A stretch of 64,000 nt of DNA, taken from assembly GCA_049973045.1 (NCBI GenBank), contig JBMFJZ010000001.1, forward strand, positions 473,363 to 537,362. Reading direction: 5' to 3'. Below are positions 54,428-64,000 of this stretch, one piece after another. The notes below the pieces were generated by a model. It was not told where the DNA came from, did no database searches, and saw nothing but the letters and a program-made list of their open reading frames with translations. The position numbers and the translations under genes are program-made. The DNA is from Bacteroidota bacterium. GTDB taxonomy: Bacteria; Bacteroidota; Ignavibacteria; 0-14-0-80-59-12. Within the stretch, counting starts at the first letter, position 1, and each line of letters begins with the position of its first letter.

Positions 54428-55723
54428 ATGAAGTCTCGATCGATTGCTTTCCTTCTCGTATTTGCACTCGCAACTGGCAATGCTCAGAGAGTAGACTACA
54501 ACAAGTTTTTCACTGAGAAGCGCATGCGAATTGATTACTTCCATACGGGAACAAAAACGGAGGAATTTTTCAGCATTGACCAAGTCTATGAGGAACCGGT
54601 GTGGGCTGGCAGTCGAACGAATCTCATCGACACGCTCAACCTGGGCACGTACCAAGTGCGTGTCTACGATCTGGCAACAAATCAGCTTATCTATTCTCAC
54701 GGATTTTCAAGTATCTTCGGCGAATGGAGGACCACCGACGAAGCTGCCCAGAATGTCTTCCGAACGTTTTCTGAATCTGTTCTTATCCCTTACCCAAAGT
54801 ATCCAGTTCAGCTCGTCATAGCCGCACGAGATCGCTGGAATCATTTCATTGAAAAATGGAATTTTAGCATTGATCCTTCATCACGGTTCGTCAATCGGAC
54901 TCCACATGGGCAAAATATCCCGTACACGACGTGGATGAAAAACGGCGCCGAAGCAACGCACGTTGATCTCGCCGTACTTGCTGAAGGATACACAAAAGAA
55001 GAGATGAAAAAATTCCAGAGCGATGCAGATCGGCTGCTGAAAGTCCTCTTCTCCACCTCACCTTACGATACAATGAGACAGGCGTTCAACGTGTACCTCG
55101 TCGAGACTATTTCATCGCAGTCGGGCACTGATGAGCCGCGTGAAAATGTGTGGGTAAGTACAGCCCTGGAAACCACGTTCAATTTCTTTGACCTCGCTCG
55201 TTACCTTATGACAACAGATAATAAGACAATGCGGGACGATCTCGGGTCAATCCCTTATGACGCAATTATCATACTTGTGAACACCCAGAAATATGGAGGC
55301 GGAGGCATTTACAATCTTTATGCGACCTGTCCCTCCGATAACCAGTGGTCAAATTACGTCTTCGTTCATGAATTTGGCCATTCGTTTGCCGGCTTAGGAG
55401 ATGAATACTACACGTCAGAGGTCACATATAACGAGTTTTATCCTCGTGGTGTCGAGCCCTGGGAACCAAACATCACCGCACTCCTTAATCCGACGGAACT
55501 GAAGTGGAAAGACCTGGTTACCGCTGGCACCCCCATCCCAACGCCACCGGATTCAGCAAAGTATCCTTTCCCGACTGTCGGGGCGTTCGAAGGCGCTGGA
55601 TACGCAGCAAAAGGCTTATACCGCCCATCGATCGATTGCATCATGTTTTCAAAAACGTTGAACAAGTTCGACCCGGTATGCAATCGAGCAATACGGAGAG
55701 TTATCGAAAGTTATCGAAATTAA
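54428..55723 (+). CDS. Secreted peptidase M64 family (IgA-peptidase-like zinc metalloprotease)
   Basis: Signal peptide; HEFGHSF zinc-binding HExxH; M64 N-terminal domain-like sequence. Confidence 0.7.
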   Translation: MKSRSIAFLLVFALATGNAQRVDYNKFFTEKRMRIDYFHTGTKTEEFFSIDQVYEEPVWAGSRTNLIDTLNLGTYQVRVYDLATNQLIYSHGFSSIFGEWRTTDEAAQNVFRTFSESVLIPYPKYPVQLVIAARDRWNHFIEKWNFSIDPSSRFVNRTPHGQNIPYTTWMKNGAEATHVDLAVLAEGYTKEEMKKFQSDADRLLKVLFSTSPYDTMRQAFNVYLVETISSQSGTDEPRENVWVSTALETTFNFFDLARYLMTTDNKTMRDDLGSIPYDAIIILVNTQKYGGGGIYNLYATCPSDNQWSNYVFVHEFGHSFAGLGDEYYTSEVTYNEFYPRGVEPWEPNITALLNPTELKWKDLVTAGTPIPTPPDSAKYPFPTVGAFEGAGYAAKGLYRPSIDCIMFSKTLNKFDPVCNRAIRRVIESYRN

Positions 55724-55793: not shown

Positions 55794-58700
55794 ATGAAAC
55801 AATTTCTTGTTAAAGTCCTCTGTGCGTTACAGCTCGTAGGCTTTATCTTTGTAGCACTAACAGTGTTCACCTCTTTTTCTCAGCCCGAGGCTGATCCTCC
55901 TATGGCTGAGATTTCACAGGCTCTAACTGGTGACCTCCGGGGAGATCAATACTCATGGAGCTTTCTTTCCCTTTCAACGTGTGGAGTTGACCAATTTCTT
56001 GGCGAACATCCAACGTATGATGGGAGAGGCGTATTAATAATCATCCTCGATACTGGTGTCGACGTAGGCATTCCTGGGCTGATGAAAACATCCACCGGTG
56101 AGACAAAAATCATTGAAGTAAGGGATTTCTCTGGTGAGGGGGATGTTCCAGTTGAGAAAGCCATTCTGAACAAGGACAAAGGTGACAGCAGCATAAGACT
56201 CTCCGCTCCAGATAGCTCAATTAAGGTTGCGAACGTTCAGAAACTTCCGTTCAAACCGGCAAACGGTGTGTACTACATTGGAGTCTTCCGCGAAACGAAT
56301 TTTAAGAACGGGGCTGTCAACGATTTCAATGGAAACGGAACATCGGAGGATGCTTTTGCTGTCGTCGCGTTTCAGGTGGCATTGCCAAAAGTTGAAAAAG
56401 ATACCGTAAGTGATTCTATGAGGAGTGATAGTACCCAGTGGGTCGTTTACATCGACACGAACGGCAATGGCGATATTTCCGATGAGCGCCCATTGAGAGA
56501 CTACGAGCTGAACCATGATACATTCACGTTTGTCAGCAAGCCGCACAAAAAGCAAAAGGACCCTTTGACGTTAGCACTGAACTTTTATCCCCCGGAAGAT
56601 TCCGGAGATGGCAAAGTTTCAATTTTCTTCGACGATGGAGGGCATGGGACACATGTTGCTGGAATTGCAGCAGGGTACGAAATCAACGGGCAGCCAGGAT
56701 TTAACGGGGTAGCACCTGGGGCAAAGATCATTGCACTCAAAATTGGCAACAACACCTACTCAGGGGGTTCTACTCTCACAGGGAGCATGAAGCGAGCCTA
56801 CCTCTATGCCGCAACGCTCTCAAAGAAATACCACATGCCGACGGTCATCAATATGAGCTATGGCATCGGTTCCGAGATTGCTGGTCACAGCGACATTGAC
56901 GAATTCCTTGATAGCCTTCTGACAGAAAACGAAGACCTGGCGATCTGTGTTTCAGCAGGAAACAATGGCCCCGGCATTAGCTCCATCGGAACACCGGCAG
57001 CTTCCCAACTTGTCTGGACCTCGGGGGCACTATTTCCGAGAGAGACTGCGCGAGATGCCTACGGAATGGAGATGTTAGAGAACCGGATATTTTTCTTTAG
57101 CTCGCGTGGCGGGGATGTCCCAAAGCCTGACGCAGTTGCTCCTGGCGTTGCTGTCTCCACCGTGCCACATTTTGCGCATGGTGACCGAATGAACGGCACG
57201 AGCATGGCGTCTCCATACTCAGCGGGCGTCATGGCGCTCCTTCTAAGTGCTGTTAAACAACTCCACCCCGATATTACTCTCCCATTCAGACTGTTGAAGA
57301 AAGCCCTCTGGTATTCAGCAAAACCACTCCCGGGCTACTCAATGCTCGATCAAGGCCATGGGGTCCTTTCTGTCCCCGCTGCTTTTGACCTCTTGAAAAA
57401 ACTCATCGACAATAATGCTATCAAAGAAACCATTGACTACGAAGCGTTCACTGAAAGTCCAATCTTCCCTGATAATGAGGGACATACTGCATACTGGAGA
57501 AGCGTCTATTTTCCGCATGGAGAGTTAAAACAAACTTTCCACGTGAAGGGATTGTACCCTGAATGGATGAGCGAGAAAGAAAAACAGCTCTTTTTTCGGG
57601 CTTTTGCTATCAGATCAACTGCCGATTGGCTCAAGCCAATCGAGCATCTGACTTATCTTCGTGGGTCCCAGTTAGCCACAGTTACCGTCAAGTACGAGAC
57701 AGCTAAACTCGCGAAGCCCGGACTTTACACAGGTAAGATTCTTGCTTTCCGTCGTGGGGCTCCAAAGCCGATCGCTGACGTTCCTGAATTTGAACTTCTT
57801 AATACCATCGTTGTACCCTACACTTTTGGACCAAACAATGGTTATACACTCACACTCGATGATTCTCTTGCAGGAAGCGGGGCTCTGAAACGGTATTTCA
57901 TCGCTGTGCCCCCAGGAGCAACAGCAATGAATGTTTCTATAGAAGCGCTTCAGGGCAGAGAATGTCATCTCAGCGCCGCTTTCTTCTTTAACCCTGACGG
58001 AAAGAAGCGCGGTGGTACGCCACCAATTGAAACACGTGATGGAATTTTGCAGTCAAGGTCCGCCATAGGCGGACGTGGAACCGAGCTAACGCCAGGCATC
58101 TGGGAAATTGACATTCTCTCAAACCTCGTCATACCTACACCATCGCAATACAGAATAACCATAAACTTCAATGGATTTACTCTTAATCCCTCGGGGATTA
58201 CTTCCCTGAACGAAGGCGGCCATAGGCAGACGGTGCTGGTGACGAACACCTTCTCAGCCCCCTTTACTGGCTCCGGCGTTGCTTCAATCTCGTCGTTCGA
58301 AAGAGAAATTATTGACACAGTAAGGAAAGGCGACCGATTCACTTACGCGTTTAGAGGCGATTCGCTCGTGAGCTCAGTCCGGTTCAAAATTGAAATGAGC
58401 CGGGAGGACTACAACAAATTCACCGATGTGCCCGTCAACATTTACAATGAGCAAGGTAAAGGGGTGTCAAGAGAAAGTTTGGAGGAAGCTCGTGGTGAAA
58501 TCTCCTTTACTTTCTCACCCGGAGATACCACATTGTACACCCTTGAAGTAATGGGAGCTTTCACAAACTACGACAGAATGACACCCTTTGTAGTTCGTAT
58601 CATAGAAAGTCGCGTGCTGAAGGACCCCGTACCGTTCAGTGTCACCTCAGGAGGATCGCATTTGATGACATTTTATCCTGATTTTCCTGTCGTGCTTGAC

Positions 58701-58823
58701 GTCAGCGCAAAGAAGCCGCTGCCGCAGCCTCCGTTCGGTTACTATCTTGCCGGAGAAGTGAGCGTCACCGACCGGAATGGAAATGTTGGATTTGTTATAC
58801 CAATTCGATTAATGAGTAGGTGA
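55794..58823 (+). CDS. Large secreted subtilisin-like serine protease (peptidase S8) with C-terminal beta-domains
   Basis: Catalytic triad contexts ILDTGVD (Asp), HGTHVAGIAAG (His), GTSMASPYSAG (Ser); signal peptide; 1009 aa. Confidence 0.85.
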   Translation: MKQFLVKVLCALQLVGFIFVALTVFTSFSQPEADPPMAEISQALTGDLRGDQYSWSFLSLSTCGVDQFLGEHPTYDGRGVLIIILDTGVDVGIPGLMKTSTGETKIIEVRDFSGEGDVPVEKAILNKDKGDSSIRLSAPDSSIKVANVQKLPFKPANGVYYIGVFRETNFKNGAVNDFNGNGTSEDAFAVVAFQVALPKVEKDTVSDSMRSDSTQWVVYIDTNGNGDISDERPLRDYELNHDTFTFVSKPHKKQKDPLTLALNFYPPEDSGDGKVSIFFDDGGHGTHVAGIAAGYEINGQPGFNGVAPGAKIIALKIGNNTYSGGSTLTGSMKRAYLYAATLSKKYHMPTVINMSYGIGSEIAGHSDIDEFLDSLLTENEDLAICVSAGNNGPGISSIGTPAASQLVWTSGALFPRETARDAYGMEMLENRIFFFSSRGGDVPKPDAVAPGVAVSTVPHFAHGDRMNGTSMASPYSAGVMALLLSAVKQLHPDITLPFRLLKKALWYSAKPLPGYSMLDQGHGVLSVPAAFDLLKKLIDNNAIKETIDYEAFTESPIFPDNEGHTAYWRSVYFPHGELKQTFHVKGLYPEWMSEKEKQLFFRAFAIRSTADWLKPIEHLTYLRGSQLATVTVKYETAKLAKPGLYTGKILAFRRGAPKPIADVPEFELLNTIVVPYTFGPNNGYTLTLDDSLAGSGALKRYFIAVPPGATAMNVSIEALQGRECHLSAAFFFNPDGKKRGGTPPIETRDGILQSRSAIGGRGTELTPGIWEIDILSNLVIPTPSQYRITINFNGFTLNPSGITSLNEGGHRQTVLVTNTFSAPFTGSGVASISSFEREIIDTVRKGDRFTYAFRGDSLVSSVRFKIEMSREDYNKFTDVPVNIYNEQGKGVSRESLEEARGEISFTFSPGDTTLYTLEVMGAFTNYDRMTPFVVRIIESRVLKDPVPFSVTSGGSHLMTFYPDFPVVLDVSAKKPLPQPPFGYYLAGEVSVTDRNGNVGFVIPIRLMSR

Positions 58824-59268
58824 TAATAGATTCAGGCTTTAAAATGGTGGCAAAACACGAGTGCAGAGGACGGTGCCCAGGCCGCTGCACCTTTAGCCCA
58901 ACTTGGTGGCTTCCTCTTCAGAGATAAAAAATAATCCCGTTCCACGCCCGAAGATCAAACATCCATCCTATGAGCTCGAGATTGCAATTCCATTTGGTGC
59001 TGCAGCACAAACGCGCGTCGATGCTCATTTTGTGTTGCTCATCAGACTGTGTGAAAAGCTAGTTTGCGCAACTTGAAAAACCTCCATTTCTAACCCTTCA
59101 ACCAGACGGTGATGGGCCTTTCTTTGAAGAGTTCAGTTGATAATGTGCCCCCTGGGCTTCTTGGTTAAGACATCGAAAGTAGACTATCTTCCATTCTGAA
59201 GCTCACCACTCAGAGCGCTCATATTCTTTGAAGAGCTATTACGTTTGTCAACTTTTTTGTCCCGCTAC

Positions 59269-59297
59269 TTGACAAGGTGTTTTTTTTGTTATATTCT
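59269..59297 (+). promoter_or_regulatory. Sigma70-like promoter (TTGACA, 17-bp spacer, TATTCT) upstream of the MauE-like gene
   Basis: TTGACA at 59269-59274 and TATTCT at 59292-59297, located in a 548-bp intergenic region (58824-59371). Confidence 0.35.
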
Positions 59298-59392
59298 AAT
59301 GTCGATAAAAATCACGGTTTTACTTGGTCTGAGCAGGCTGGTCGGAAGATTCTTGCAAAGGTTTCCTGGGCTTGCGTTCAGGTGGAGCAAAG

Positions 59393-59740
59393 ATGAAGGA
59401 TGTGTATGGCTTCTCTAAGATTGTCAGAGATTACCACATTCTGCCTCAGGCATTTGTAATTCTGTTTTCAAGTTTAGTAGCATTTGCAGAGTTTGTTTTA
59501 GGATTGATGTTAGTCCTGAATTACCTGCCGAAGATTTCAAGCTTAACGTTATTGCTTATGGTCTCAGTGTTTACCCTTTTTACTCTTCTTAGATATACCT
59601 CAGGCGACACATCTGAATGCGGATGTTTTGGGACACTGATCCACCGAGCAGTTGACTGGAAGTTCTTTGCAGAGAATACTATGCTCATCGGTGGATTGGT
59701 AGTAACAATAATAAAAACCACAAACAATAAGGAGGACTGA
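59393..59740 (+). CDS. MauE/DoxX-like small membrane protein with CGCFG motif
   Basis: Three TM helices and SECGCFG, the signature of the methylamine-utilisation MauE family (disulfide formation). ATG at 59393 (the ORF-track start at 59372 is TTG). Confidence 0.55.
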   Translation: MKDVYGFSKIVRDYHILPQAFVILFSSLVAFAEFVLGLMLVLNYLPKISSLTLLLMVSVFTLFTLLRYTSGDTSECGCFGTLIHRAVDWKFFAENTMLIGGLVVTIIKTTNNKED

Positions 59741-59743
59741 AAC

Positions 59744-59959
59744 ATGAGACGCATGAGCGTCGTCGCACGGCTGGTAATTGCGGCATTGTCCCTCTGCATG
59801 CTGGCAAGTATCGCTTTCGACTTAATCCCGGTAGCGACAGCCACCCAGGAAGCTAAATGCGGATTGATTTACTGCATTGATGGAAAGAAAAGTTACACAG
59901 GGTGTGCTCGAGATATGACAACCGATTGCGGCACAGCTGGAGCAAACTGTGATTGCTGA
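59744..59959 (+). CDS. Small secreted cysteine-rich peptide precursor (71 aa; 6 Cys in about 38-aa mature region)
   Basis: AAGGAGGA RBS 6 nt upstream. Signal peptide MRRMSVVARLVIAALSLCMLASIAF, then ...ATA/TQEAKCGLIYCIDGKKSYTGCARDMTTDCGTAGANCDC. Starts 4 nt after the MauE-like stop. Confidence 0.6.
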   Translation: MRRMSVVARLVIAALSLCMLASIAFDLIPVATATQEAKCGLIYCIDGKKSYTGCARDMTTDCGTAGANCDC

Positions 59960-60281
59960 AAATGGGGGGCGCCCTGAGAATTTTTCGGTATGCCCCCTCA
60001 ATATCACGCAGGTTGCCCGAGGAAGTGCACGGAGATGTTAAACGAGGGGATAGGCGATACGGTCCACCAGTGAGGCTGGGGAAGCTACTAGTTGGTTGAA
60101 GACTTCGCGGGAATCACACACATCAGTTGATCTGATGTAAATGGGTTTAAGCCTCGATCCCTTGCATACGACTCTTGCGCCGAGAAAGGGAACTGTGTAA
60201 ACGCCGGAGTGTCGTGGCAACCGAGACAAGATTCTACTTCTAAGGAATATCATCTATTAATATAGGCATGAGGACAAATCA

Positions 60282-61361
60282 ATGAAAAAGGTGAGCATTC
60301 ATTGCCTACTTGTGATATCAAGCAGCGTTTTATTGGTGTTCTTCTCAGCGGGCTGCACAAAAAGACCCTCTTCTCGGAGTAATCTTCCGAGGGAGACGGT
60401 TGAACGCCTTGCTGCCAAACACAGATTCGACGAGTTGTTCAGACCCGTTGGTGTCATAGAGCTTAGAACAGATTCAAGCCATTTAGTTGGAAGAGTTGAT
60501 GTGATGGCTTTTTTCAACAACGGAAATTTTGCCATTGGCGACAACGCTTCACATCAGATTTTGTTGTTCGACCGTTTTGGAAATTTCATCTCTCAGGTTG
60601 GAAAATTTGGCAGAGGCCCTGGAGAATATGTTCGTATTGCAAGCTTGGCAACAAACGATAGGAATGAGTTGCTTTGCCTTGATAACAGCTTGAACATGGT
60701 TTCAAGATTTGATTCAGCAGGTCGTTATGTGAACTCGTGCCAGGTAAAATACGGGTTCGTTCTTAAAACTGCAGAAGATCGAGGTTTTTACGTTTATAAT
60801 TACTTAACTCCACCTGAGAGCAAGAGAAATGTTGTTTTCAAATACGATTCCAGTGGAAATCTTGTGAAAAGTTTTGGTTCTCCCTGGCCAAAAGTTATCA
60901 TCGACCGAGTTCCCATTGGAGGTGGGGGGATGGCCCGTTTTGATAATGAAATTTTCATCATCCAAGCCTCGGAGTTCAAGGTTCGAAAGTATTCCAGCGA
61001 AGGCAGGTTCATAAAGGAATTCGGGAGAGATTCACCGGTTTACAAGCCTCTGCAGCCCCCGGTATCATTCTCTGACAGAGAAAAGTTGGAATCCTTCACA
61101 GCAGTCAGCTCGATTTTTGCACTTTCCCCAGGCGTCCTCGCTGTATTCCTCACAAGAACACAGCCCGCGTCCCAATGGATTGAACTCTTCGATAGAGAGG
61201 GAAATTTCTTAACCGGAGCAATTGAAGTGCCGCAGAACCTTGAGGTTTGTAGATCAGCCTATAAGGATATTCTCTACTTTGTTGAGTACCCTTCTCTGAT
61301 TCAGGGCTCAAAAGGCGGGTTCGCAAATCCTAAAATTCATGGGTATCAACTTATCCCGTAG
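60282..61361 (+). CDS. Lipoprotein with 6-bladed beta-propeller (NHL/TolB-like) repeats
   Basis: Signal peptide plus lipobox FFSAGC; repeated FD..G.FI..FG..G.GPGEY-type blades. Confidence 0.6.
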   Translation: MKKVSIHCLLVISSSVLLVFFSAGCTKRPSSRSNLPRETVERLAAKHRFDELFRPVGVIELRTDSSHLVGRVDVMAFFNNGNFAIGDNASHQILLFDRFGNFISQVGKFGRGPGEYVRIASLATNDRNELLCLDNSLNMVSRFDSAGRYVNSCQVKYGFVLKTAEDRGFYVYNYLTPPESKRNVVFKYDSSGNLVKSFGSPWPKVIIDRVPIGGGGMARFDNEIFIIQASEFKVRKYSSEGRFIKEFGRDSPVYKPLQPPVSFSDREKLESFTAVSSIFALSPGVLAVFLTRTQPASQWIELFDREGNFLTGAIEVPQNLEVCRSAYKDILYFVEYPSLIQGSKGGFANPKIHGYQLIP

Positions 61362-61380
61362 GTATCAAGCGAGAAGGCTA

Positions 61381-62001
61381 ATGGTCCATCGGAAAGCATT
61401 ATTTCAGATAATCACATCCGGAGTTCTTCTAATATTCGCAGCATATTCAGCATATGTGAATGCTCACCTGAAAAGGAAATTAGCAGAACAAACAACTACG
61501 ATAGATTCATTAACCTCGTACCAGAGGACGAGCACGTGGATTGACGACCGCGAGGGGGCACGTTTGCCGAACGATATCCTGAGAAATACTGAAGGAGATA
61601 CCGTAGGGCTTCTGCGTCTTTTGAAATTATCCGGTTACTCCATACTCGTGATTGAACCGGAGAATACGTGTAGTACTTGTCTTGAGACTACACTGGCTAC
61701 TTGGAAAAAGGCTTCTGCGTCCTCTTCTTTAGAACGGCAGCTCGGTTTCTTCATCGTTTCGATGGATGAAGGACGGCGAGCATATCTTCTGGCGCGGAAG
61801 TTCCAGCTGGAAAATCATTGTTACGTGGATAGAACCCGGGAACTTTCTAGCTTCCTTCCCGTTCCTCCAACTCTTCCCTTTGCTCTTTTCGCCGACAAGA
61901 ATGGGAAAGTTGTCTATGCTCAGGTCTTAAGTTGGAGATCGCCCGAACGATTTGTTAGCTTTCTTAAAAAAGTCGATCGCTACCTACGAGAGGAAATGTG
62001 A
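61381..62001 (+). CDS. Membrane-anchored TlpA/ResA/MauD-like thioredoxin-fold thiol:disulfide oxidoreductase
   Basis: N-terminal TM helix; ILVIEPENTCSTC CxxC motif in thioredoxin-fold context. ATG at 61381 with a GAGAAGG RBS, just after the upstream stop (the ORF-track start at 61339 overlaps). Confidence 0.6.
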   Translation: MVHRKALFQIITSGVLLIFAAYSAYVNAHLKRKLAEQTTTIDSLTSYQRTSTWIDDREGARLPNDILRNTEGDTVGLLRLLKLSGYSILVIEPENTCSTCLETTLATWKKASASSSLERQLGFFIVSMDEGRRAYLLARKFQLENHCYVDRTRELSSFLPVPPTLPFALFADKNGKVVYAQVLSWRSPERFVSFLKKVDRYLREEM

Positions 62002-62339
62002 CTCAAAGCTACCGGATCTTTTATTCAAGTTAGAGGATGCAGAGCATCGACTGCAACTGGACACAGGAAAGTTCAACCGCCGAGCCTAAGGGTCGACCAC
62101 AATGCATAACATCCAGCAATTAGATTTAGTCGGCAGGCTTGACGTTACGAAATCTGAACCGCACGGCCCACAGGCTCCGCTCGACATGTGCTCGTGTTGG
62201 TTAAGATTTCAGGCTGAGTAAATACCATGCTCCCTAACTGAAGTCGCAATATCGGATCCGCTATAATCACCAATGGCTTGGTTGTCGTACAGTTGCCCCA
62301 GAGTCTCAACCGGTAAACAACACGCAGCAGGGATGAACT

Positions 62340-64000
62340 TTACATACTCAATGCCTCACGGAGGAAGCGGGCTGTATAAGATTTTTCAACATTTATAATT
62401 TCTTCAGGAGGTCCCTCCGCAACAATGTATCCCCCTGCGTCCCCGCCTTCTGGTCCAAGATCAATGATCCAATCAGCCGTCTTAATAACGTCCATGTTAT
62501 GTTCGATGACGATCACCGTATTCCCCCTGTCAACAAGTTTGTTGAGCACTGCAAGGAGCATTCGAACGTCTTCGAAATGAAGCCCTGTAGTAGGTTCGTC
62601 GAGAATGTATAGAGTCTTACCTGTGCTCACTTTCGAAAGCTCGGTTGAAAGCTTTACGCGCTGAGCCTCTCCGCCGCTTAATGTTGTAGCTTGTTGCCCC
62701 AATCGAATGTAACCCATGCCGACATCATGGAGTGTTTCCAGCTTTCTACGAACCGCCGGGATATCCGCGAAAAATTCAAGTGCTTCAGTTACTGTCATAT
62801 TCAAAACATCGGCAATAGATTTCCCCTTGTAAAGAACTTCAAGGGTCTCTTTATTGTAGCGTTTACCCCCACATGCATCGCATAGAACATACACGTCAGG
62901 AAGAAAATTCATTTCGATTTTCTTGACACCGTCTCCATCGCATTCTTCGCACCGTCCACCTCTTACATTGAAACTAAATCGACCCGGCGAGTAGCCGCGC
63001 ATTTTCGCTTCCGGAAGCTGAGCAAAGAGATCCCGGATAGAGGTGAACAAACCAGTGTATGTAGCTGGATTTGACCGTGGTGTTCTACCGATTGGCGATT
63101 GATCGACGTTAACAACACGCTTTAGGTGCTCAATACCCTCAATGCTTTTATAAGGAAGCGGAATTTCTTTCGACTTATAAAATTCCCGCGCAAGAATCGG
63201 ATACAGTGTCTCAGTTATCAGTGACGATTTTCCTGAGCCGCTCACACCTGTAACACAAATGAATACACCCAATGGGAAGCGCACATCGATGGACTTCAAA
63301 TTGTTGCCGGAAGCTTTCCTGAGAACCAGACTTTTGCCGCTACCCGTTCTCCGCAAAGGAGGCGGCAGAATCTTCCTCGCACCGCTCAGATACTCCAGTG
63401 TTAACGAGCCTAAAGTACCTCCATCACCGCCTAATTTGCTTCGACGGACAAGCTCTCGTGGCGAACCGGTAACTACGACATACCCACCATGCTCCCCTGC
63501 CCTCGGTCCAAGATCAACAATGAAGTCTGCGTTCTGGATCATTTCGCGATCATGTTCAACCACCATCACAGTGTTGCCAAGATCGCGCAGTTCTTTCAAT
63601 GAACGAATGAGTCTCAGGTTATCCCGTTGGTGAAGACCGATACTTGGCTCATCGAGCACGTAGAGAACCCCAACGAGCTGTGAGCCGATCTGAGTCGCAA
63701 GCCGTATACGCTGTGCCTCACCGCCTGAAAGAGTACGAGACGGTCGATCGAGTGTGAGATAATCAAGTCCAACATCCACAAGAAATTTCAGTCGCTGCTG
63801 AATCTCCTTCACAATCTGTCGAGCAATCTCCTCCTGGCGGGGCTTCAACGCAAGGGTTTGAAAATAGAGATATGCTTGATTAATCGGCATGCTCACAATG
63901 TCAAAAATGTTCTTCTTCTCACCCGTCGCTGCATCAACAAGTCTGATTGCCAAGCTTTCTTTCTTCAGGCGGCCGCCACCGCATGTTGGGCACGCCTTCG
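62340..64000 (-). CDS. uvrA: Excinuclease ABC subunit A, C-terminal portion (gene start lies beyond window end)
   Basis: Two ABC signature/Walker regions and UvrA zinc-finger Cys pairs; C-terminal [20 protein letters not shown]. The ORF continues past 64000. Confidence 0.9.

Follow-up and report, generated by a model that had tools for sequence, protein, structure and literature searches.

A candidate oxidative-folding cassette joining a cysteine-rich peptide, a DUF5128 propeller and a thioredoxin-fold protein in Ignavibacteria-like Bacteroidota

In methylamine dehydrogenase, the seven-bladed propeller protein MauB holds the disulfide-rich light chain MauA. Maturation of that light chain needs MauE and MauD, according to passages citing this result in a preprint by Gonzalez et al. 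2026 (bioRxiv 10.64898/2026.03.05.709764) and in PMC7794033. The preprint reports that MauE from two phyla complements an Escherichia coli dsbB deletion, that it needs its CXC motif, that it is fused to thioredoxin-family domains in 8% of entries, and that a conserved lysine of helix 1 is implicated in quinone binding; its authors predict action through a thioredoxin-family partner and propose MauE as a generalist DsbB substitute in many phyla. Together, complementation and fusions indicate a flow of electrons from substrate to thioredoxin partner, and from there through MauE to quinone. Here we describe a four-gene locus at positions 59,269 to 62,001 of a 64,000-nucleotide stretch (hereafter, the window) of contig JBMFJZ010000001.1 from an Ignavibacteria member of the Bacteroidota (assembly GCA_049973045.1). 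The locus encodes a MauE-family membrane protein, a small cysteine-rich peptide, a DUF5128 beta-propeller and a thioredoxin-fold protein with a CxxC motif.

The locus resembles the mau cluster in its combination of genes: a membrane protein of the MauE family that bears a CXC motif, a CxxC protein of the TlpA/ResA type with a membrane anchor, a short polypeptide for export that is predicted to be rich in disulfides, and a beta-propeller. It differs in that no MauG, MauA or MauB homologue is present at the cassette, and Pfam and NCBIfam scans found no mau-type neighbours. The predicted mature peptide has 38 residues and no tryptophan, which makes a tryptophan tryptophylquinone cofactor impossible; the propeller is DUF5128/NHL-like, with six blades and a predicted lipid anchor; the CxxC protein has no match to the MauD model; and the signal peptide of the small precursor is Sec-like and lacks a twin-arginine motif. 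The MauE-like protein shares with those of the preprint its Pfam family, a CGCFG loop between helices 3 and 4, a glutamate on helix 2 and the pairing with a thioredoxin-type protein. It differs from the proposed generalist in that the intact form sits in a peptide-specific cassette, and in the window helix 1 is no longer joined to the rest of the protein.

Besides the mau genes, precedents for the general idea exist in bacteroidetocin loci, in Cys-rich precursors of Streptomyces that are linked to MauE, and in fused thioredoxin-NHL proteins. Bacteroidetocin (class IIf) loci occur in Bacteroidales, and the phylum is said to lack general Dsb machinery (PMC6671954). They have the same order of membrane protein, small Cys-containing peptide and thiol oxidoreductase, and differ by a 15-residue GG leader, a C39-peptidase ATP-binding cassette (ABC) exporter, four cysteines and the lack of a propeller lipoprotein; no sequence similarity between the bacteroidetocins and the cassette peptide was detected. 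The decRiPPter study (PMC7794033) described Streptomyces candidate families of RiPPs (ribosomally synthesised peptides that carry post-translational modifications), in which mauE, and also mauD, lies beside precursors with at least eight cysteines, and predicted that these genes modify the precursor. Those candidates likewise place MauE, with or without MauD homologues, outside mau clusters and beside small Cys-rich precursor genes; they belong to another phylum with another cell envelope, have no propeller partner and have no known relation to our peptide. In NHLRC2, a thioredoxin-like domain is fused to a six-bladed NHL propeller and conserved residues line the interdomain cleft, suggesting a shared substrate site, and for its bacterial homologues no fixed operon partners were found (PMC6107167). 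The cassette shares with NHLRC2 and SOQ1 the combination of a thioredoxin-fold, CxxC-type domain with a six-bladed propeller, and differs in encoding them as separate, translationally coupled genes and in having CSTC rather than CC(I/V)NC. In the sublancin operon of Bacillus subtilis SPbeta, bdbA and bdbB encode a DsbB-type oxidase and a thioredoxin-like protein beside a disulfide-containing secreted peptide. That system has DsbB instead of MauE, a Gram-positive host, a glycosylated peptide exported by an ABC transporter, and no propeller.

We propose that the locus is an accessory cassette of Ignavibacteria-like Bacteroidota, whose probable products are a small periplasmic peptide locked by disulfides and the partner protein of that peptide. 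Functional linkage of the genes is well supported, and their action as a dedicated oxidative-folding module is plausible; this is the best reading because the preprint shows that MauE can replace DsbB. The features of the locus are as follows.

59269..59297, + strand: putative sigma-70-like promoter match, TTGACA-17 nt-TATTCT, agreeing at 10 of 12 consensus positions
59299..59418, + strand: N-terminal remnant of the MauE-like gene, 39 codons in frame 1, from alignment with intact orthologues
59376..59377, + strand: site of an 8-nt deletion in the MauE-like gene, from alignment with the sister-species orthologue
59372..59740, + strand: truncated MauE/DoxX-family membrane protein, from Pfam MauE and DoxX
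59730..59735, + strand: Shine-Dalgarno sequence AGGAGG of the peptide gene, within the 3' end of the MauE open reading frame (ORF), read from the sequence
59744..59959, + strand: 71-residue Cys-rich peptide precursor, from its cysteine pattern and its ratio of nonsynonymous to synonymous substitution rates (dN/dS)
59964..59998, + strand: G+C-rich hairpin directly 3' of the peptide stop codon, from folding energy
60282..61361, + strand: DUF5128 six-bladed beta-propeller, probable lipoprotein, from Pfam DUF5128 and an invariant Cys25
61381..62001, + strand: membrane-anchored ResA/TlpA-type thioredoxin-fold protein, CSTC at 61669-61680, from predicted structure and profile

The arrangement recurs in relatives. 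In a sister species all four genes occupy the corresponding chromosomal position and the MauE gene is intact, and the cassette is found in distant metagenomic and Ignavibacteriales contigs, even twice in tandem. A locus search with a four-member alignment of the CxxC family returned one genome locus, L010, in an Ignavibacteriales metagenome-assembled genome. One module of this locus (B) holds a peptide, a DUF5128 propeller and a CxxC-family protein; a second (C) holds a thioredoxin-like protein without the cysteine pair, a propeller, an unrelated six-Cys ORF with a signal peptide, and MauE; and further thioredoxin-type genes are also present. In contigs L068 and L069 the order is MauE, 68-residue peptide, DUF5128, propeller-like protein, CxxC protein, MauE, 72-residue peptide, DUF5128 and Thioredoxin_4. 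Contigs L062, L066, L070 and L071 each pair an intact DUF5128 gene with the CxxC family and carry small signal-peptide ORFs containing cysteines. DUF5128 adjoins the CxxC-family gene in nearly all contexts fetched, the exceptions being L064, where a transposase splits the DUF5128 gene, and L065, where the contig is too short to judge; a Cys-rich ORF with a signal peptide is present in most of them. The MauE and peptide genes are immediate neighbours in the window and in the sister species, twice in L068/L069, and in module C of L010. The constant core therefore consists of peptide, propeller and CxxC protein, with MauE frequent but optional. As a negative control, a metagenome scan with the propeller alignment gave 51 loci, 50 of which were generic DUF5128/NHL propellers; these 50 had no MauE and, for a signal-bearing Cys-rich ORF, yielded three off-frame chance matches but no plausible candidate. 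Chance falls far short of explaining the arrangement, which is conserved across lineages.

The tandem cassettes of L068/L069 allow their components to be compared. Identity reaches 73% between the two MauE copies (66 shared residues) but only about 33% between the two propellers (about 85 residues), and the two peptides show no relationship, so that the propeller appears to diverge with the peptide and MauE appears generic. In the second L068 cassette (L068:5343-5795) a Thioredoxin_4 protein, DsbA-like, anchored in the membrane and carrying a CHYC motif, takes the thioredoxin slot in place of the ResA-like family; this argues that the slot is that of an oxidant. Further small thioredoxin-like genes lie beside other propellers in L010 (573-1318 and 7160-7768) and L070 (9187-9729 and 12965-13495), some with CxxC motifs (CRSC, CTFC, CYRC) and one without cysteines. 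L010 also has a 571-residue protein with a C-terminal TlpA-like domain, and the two loci resemble arrays built of propeller/thioredoxin modules. In three contigs unrelated to one another, Wzy_C (O-antigen-ligase-like) proteins are encoded downstream of the cassette (L062:2039-5284, L064:8354-9065 and L066:5319-7205); two of the three have tetratricopeptide (TPR) repeats or lie beside a TPR protein, and in L066 this region further encodes a signal peptidase I (S26) together with an S9 peptidase.

The small ORF agrees with its initial annotation as a 71-residue signal-peptide precursor with six cysteines in about 38 mature residues: it begins 4 nt after the MauE stop codon, and a strong ribosome-binding site, AGGAGG, lies 8 nt upstream of its ATG. 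Its N-terminus (59744-59842) is basic, then hydrophobic, resembles a signal peptide and ends in PVATA. The predicted mature peptide (59843-59956) has the arrangement C-G-L-x-x-C-x9-C-x7-C-x6-C-x-C. Comparison with an 85%-identical orthologue gave a dN/dS of 0.18, indicating purifying selection, with all cysteines kept and the changes mostly in the signal region. A search of 5.8 billion clusters found only two matching representatives, one identical and one 85% identical, and word-based homologue searches found almost nothing for the peptide, the CxxC protein or the propeller. The loci of the distant CxxC-family members L010, L062 and L066 share the pattern P-x-A-x-A…[KR]-C-G-L-x-x-C-x(9-12)-C-x(6-8)-C-x(4-6)-C-x-C, of which one position is G in four of five lineages and D in the window. 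A pattern of cysteine spacing only matches the five lineages and none of the others among 4530 ORFs, and in all five the peptide lies near a DUF5128 propeller and the CxxC family. The small ORF therefore appears to be a real gene, given its dN/dS, its conserved cysteines and the restriction of the pattern to these five lineages.

A search of the PDB with the peptide profile gave no match, and the window peptide had no Pfam match at E<=1. The NVEALA family (PF14055), named in the initial annotation as one to check, was rejected: neither the window peptide nor six peptides from related cassettes matched it at E<=1, and its motif is absent. The part of the gene coding for the mature peptide shows low synonymous divergence from the sister species (dS 0.24, compared to 1.0 for the signal part and 0.5-0.9 for neighbouring genes), which could be a chance effect, the stretch being 38 codons long, or reflect a further constraint acting on the nucleotide sequence. 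A contig of GCA_049700715.1 (L001:1-300, window 59672-59960) is 99.9% identical to the window and ends inside the MauE gene; in it, a 1-nt deletion cuts the peptide to 40 residues, and because this lies near the contig end it could be either an assembly error or a second inactivating lesion.

An alternative start at 61339 would give the gene of the CxxC protein a 23-nt overlap with the propeller gene. The protein carries the CSTC motif and a single membrane helix at its N-terminus. It had been described as a TlpA/MauD-like thioredoxin, and the two halves of that description fared differently: the predicted fold is of the ResA/TlpA type, whereas no Pfam or NCBIfam model matched at E<=1 (AhpC-TSA, Redoxin and Thioredoxin_8 included), and membership of MauD was ruled out by the lack of a match to its NCBIfam model. 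An exhaustive HMMER search of 1.84 billion cluster representatives found a family of 20 relatives at E<=1e-3, all but two of them 205-224 residues long and most full-length members having an N-terminal hydrophobic segment. Besides Met1, the two cysteines are the sole invariant residues; almost as constant is an EG motif of the kind typical for the N-terminal hairpin of ResA, and weak AhpC-TSA matches occur in only 2 of the 20 members (best E=0.0043). The family profile matched PDB entry 2m72, an uncharacterised thioredoxin-like protein, with E=4.9e-6 and the CxxC aligned, and ResA with E of about 0.08. An AlphaFold2 model built from two sequences was unusable, with a predicted local distance difference test score (pLDDT) of 43; the 20-sequence alignment used in its place gave 92.3. 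In this model C97-x-x-C100 stands at the start of helix 98-114, with strands at 66-68 and 74-76, and Foldseek matched it to ResA, DsbE, TlpA, CcmG and Bcp with probability 1.00 and E down to 6.7e-8. The window protein has P-T at the place expected for the cis-proline. On profile and predicted structure, we regard the CxxC protein as a divergent, membrane-anchored member of the ResA/TlpA fold that faces the periplasm.

The 359-residue protein was correctly recognised at the outset as a six-bladed propeller, and the lipoprotein nature proposed for it then is probable. It matches Pfam DUF5128, '6-bladed beta-propeller', at 69.5 bits (gathering cut-off 22.9 bits; E=3.7e-19) over residues 45-197 and profile positions 19-174 of 321. 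Its N-terminus reads …VFFSAGC, with the lipobox-like FSAGC; C25 does not vary among three orthologues, and a similar cysteine is present in most homologues. Acidic residues after this cysteine are the known surface-export signal of Bacteroidota lipoproteins. The residues that follow it here are basic, which suggests that the propeller faces the periplasm. Its dN/dS is 0.13, and its orthologues, at 26-48% identity, adjoin the CxxC family in every context examined. The only distant propeller match of the word-based searches, P0007, was set aside as a cyanobacterial PEP-CTERM NHL protein in an unrelated context, and a literature search found no mention of DUF5128 or NVEALA.

The MauE ORF matches both of the models on which its initial identification was staked: Pfam MauE (PF07291) at 75.6 bits (gathering cut-off 27 bits; E=5.8e-21; profile positions 19-126 of 128) and Pfam DoxX at E=2.3e-5. 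The NCBI annotation of the truncated ORF is 'MauE/DoxX family redox-associated membrane protein'. The CGCFG motif lies at 59618-59632 (ECGCFG at 59615-59632, CGC at 59618-59626) in the loop between helices 3 and 4, and the conserved glutamate on helix 2 is present. The dN/dS of the ORF against the sister species is 0.32.

The four genes all lie on the + strand, as first described, and the intergenic region upstream of the MauE ORF measures 548 bp when counted to 59372 and contains the reported promoter-like match; the tight spacing holds except before the propeller gene, where the gap is 322 bp (59960-60281). The promoter-like site can alternatively be read as an extended -10 element, TGtTATATT, and a block TT(G/T)ACA...TTTTTTTGTTATATTC.AATG in this region is kept in the sister species. 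The conserved -10-like element stops 2-4 nt 5' of the ancestral MauE ATG, which has no Shine-Dalgarno sequence before it. This may imply a leaderless or near-leaderless mRNA, or a true promoter elsewhere. The peptide-propeller gap is partly conserved: only its ends match the sister species, including about 70 nt (60214-60281) upstream of the propeller start, which may mean that the propeller-CxxC pair has a promoter or leader of its own. The hairpin that follows the peptide gene (-19.8 kcal/mol, z=-2.1) has no U-tract and is not conserved, the matching sister-species region failing to fold (z=+0.8). An Rfam scan of 58700-62400 gave no match, and a terminator scan found sites no more numerous than in shuffled sequence. 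A motif, CTCAAT(A/G)T(G/C)A(T/C)GCAG(A/G)T, occurs once in the window gap (59997-60013) and twice, about 70 nt apart, in that of the sister species (L003, about 868-895 and 940-965), and is a possible operator or regulatory site.

Two secreted peptidase genes lie directly upstream of the cassette, one encoding a member of the M64 'IgA peptidase' family (54428-55723) and one a 1009-residue S8 subtilase (55794-58823), and for neither could a conserved association with the cassette be shown. The subtilase was considered as a leader protease and rejected for lack of conservation: related contigs end before the region, and other cassettes have different neighbours. Seven independent sister-species assemblies (L002-L008) break off 46-157 nt upstream of the MauE start, at points that lie no more than about 110 nt apart, and their sequences are identical as far as they go (first 47-158 nt, equivalent to about 59140-59298 of the window). 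Strong heterogeneity between strains, a mobile element or a repeat is therefore suggested immediately upstream. At this position the window has an unrelated 475-bp spacer and the S8 subtilase gene. As had been noted initially, no radical-SAM protein or other RiPP maturase, YcaO and LanM/LanB included, occurs among the window neighbours (M64 peptidase, S8 subtilase, UvrA and others), and none occurs in related cassettes.

The proposed cassette would work as follows. The 71-residue precursor would be exported by Sec and cut after the conserved P-x-A-x-A motif, and its six cysteines would be joined into three disulfides by the membrane-anchored CxxC protein, whose ResA/TlpA-fold domain is predicted to lie in the periplasm. 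By analogy with other MauE proteins, the MauE-type four-helix protein would then use its periplasmic CGC loop to re-oxidise the CxxC protein, and quinone would take up the electrons. The DUF5128 lipoprotein would be the peptide-specific partner, either a folding scaffold or the protein to which the folded peptide stays bound; its strict adjacency and the joint divergence of propellers and peptides in paralogous cassettes argue for this role. The lack of an outer-membrane carrier in any cassette, together with the basic residues after the lipid-anchor cysteine, favours a periplasmic peptide that works with or is bound to the propeller. It is conceivable, as a tentative extension of this proposal, that the folded peptide is a disulfide-locked small subunit or ligand of the propeller lipoprotein, and is neither released nor a toxin. 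The two proteins might then form a miniature two-subunit periplasmic complex, built like methylamine dehydrogenase, with the propeller as heavy chain, the peptide as disulfide-rich light chain and MauE/MauD-type maturation, but without its quinone cofactor.

Several observations weigh against an oxidative-folding module of this kind. MauE is absent beside the peptide in module B of L010 and in L062, L066 and L071. In the window itself, an 8-nt deletion between 59376 and 59377 (window GGGCTTGCG--------TTCAGGT, orthologue GGGGTTGTATTTATAGTTTCAGGT) splits the MauE gene into a 39-residue fragment (59299..59418) and the 122-residue ORF. The fragment holds most of transmembrane helix 1 before running out of frame, and its MSIKITVLLGLSRLVGRFLQRF.GL.F aligns with the N-terminus of intact 149-residue orthologues. 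The ORF, of 122 residues from TTG 59372 or 115 from ATG 59393, keeps helices 2-4, which alone share one frame; the four-helix bundle, including helix 1 with its conserved lysine, is thus incomplete here. The same truncated allele occurs in a second assembly that differs at one residue, and relatives at least 90% identical carry the intact 149-residue MauE; the deletion is therefore a genuine lesion at strain level rather than an isolated sequencing error. No second MauE exists within the 64-kb window, and either another oxidase substitutes for the broken MauE in this strain or decay of the cassette has begun. The initial annotation had spoken of a self-contained module, which the frameshift contradicts for this strain. 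The direction of electron flow is also an inferred one, since ResA/TlpA-type proteins are classically reductants and the cis-proline position varies across the 20-member family. The 322-bp gap, with its conserved block before the propeller gene, makes two transcription units possible. Lastly, the peptides of different lineages are weakly similar by score (phmmer E=0.0015 and 0.041), and their homology is argued from pattern plus position. Taken together, the initial observation was largely right and its oxidative-folding interpretation is partly supported, while its suggestions of a 'bacteriocin, signal or toxin' and of presentation by the propeller are conjecture.

The main rival explanation, which we consider unlikely, has the peptide exported to serve as a weapon or signal (a bacteriocin or toxin, for example), with MauE and the CxxC protein as folding helpers and the propeller as an immunity or export-assisting factor. 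The bacteroidetocin loci offer a model for this, since their multi-pass membrane protein, four-Cys peptide and thiol oxidoreductase are all required for activity (PMC6671954); tandem cassettes with highly divergent peptides resemble toxin diversification, and one L068 peptide has a faint match to YxzE-like putative bacteriocins (E=0.022, below cut-off). However, no GG leader, C39/ABC exporter or other outer-membrane export component was found within any cassette or close to one, and in a diderm cell a peptide with nothing but a Sec signal stays in the periplasm. The propeller has basic residues after its cysteine and not the acidic surface-export signal, and no mobile-element or immunity-gene signature is present in the window. 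It is quite unlikely, in our estimate, that the propeller and CxxC protein form a redox repair or reductive unit, similar to NHLRC2/SOQ1 or to TlpA-like metal-centre assembly, with the peptide as a reduced thiol or metal-binding cofactor. The closest folds, those of ResA, TlpA, CcmG and Bcp, are indeed reductants or peroxidases, a thioredoxin-like domain and an NHL propeller form a conserved functional cleft in NHLRC2 (PMC6107167), and the C-terminal CxC and CGL..C motifs of the peptide could bind metal. Set against this, the partner in the cassette is MauE, an oxidase, and not a CcdA/DsbD electron importer, a DsbA-like protein fills the same slot in a paralogous cassette, the NHLRC2 signature CC(I/V)NC is absent, and no metal-handling genes lie near the cassette in the window.

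The remaining explanations deny the genes a common function or a present one. It seems very unlikely that MauE and the CxxC protein are general periplasmic disulfide machinery, with peptide and propeller as unrelated neighbours. MauE has been proposed as a generalist DsbB substitute (bioRxiv 10.64898/2026.03.05.709764), it is dispensable in this strain, and the four genes may form two transcription units, all of which would fit a housekeeping role; yet a housekeeping pair would not be expected to be duplicated within one locus beside different peptides and propellers, as in L068/L069, L010 and L070. The CxxC family is moreover tiny (20 clusters in 1.84 billion) and lies beside DUF5128 in nearly all contexts, L065 being too short, and the cysteine pattern of the peptide is found exclusively at these loci. 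We give hardly any credence to the cassette being a decaying remnant without current function in this strain. The MauE frameshift common to two assemblies points that way, as does the 1-nt deletion in the peptide gene of a third, near a contig end. On the other side, the genes for peptide, propeller and CxxC protein all remain intact, with purifying selection acting on them (dN/dS 0.13-0.27 against the sister species), and the truncated MauE ORF keeps a Shine-Dalgarno-like GGAG before ATG 59393.

For MauE, whose role as a DsbB-like generator of disulfides was demonstrated only recently, the cassette offers candidates for a natural partner and substrate outside methylamine dehydrogenase: it holds a compact triad of MauE, a dedicated thioredoxin-fold protein and a 38-residue, six-Cys candidate substrate, together with a DUF5128 propeller. 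New here are the peptide family, a cryptic thioredoxin subfamily missed by standard domain models, the fixed DUF5128 partner, and a compact Sec-dependent layout without exporter or maturase. If the peptide is indeed a small subunit of the propeller, paralogous cassettes would encode matched peptide-propeller pairs with different specificities, and the locus would provide the first case in nature, apart from the mau genes, of a dedicated MauE-thioredoxin-substrate triad. DUF5128 is a large family without known function, for which a real peptide-propeller pairing would provide a first functional handle, and the cassette would then represent a natural system for substrate-specific oxidative folding in bacteria lacking DsbA and DsbB.

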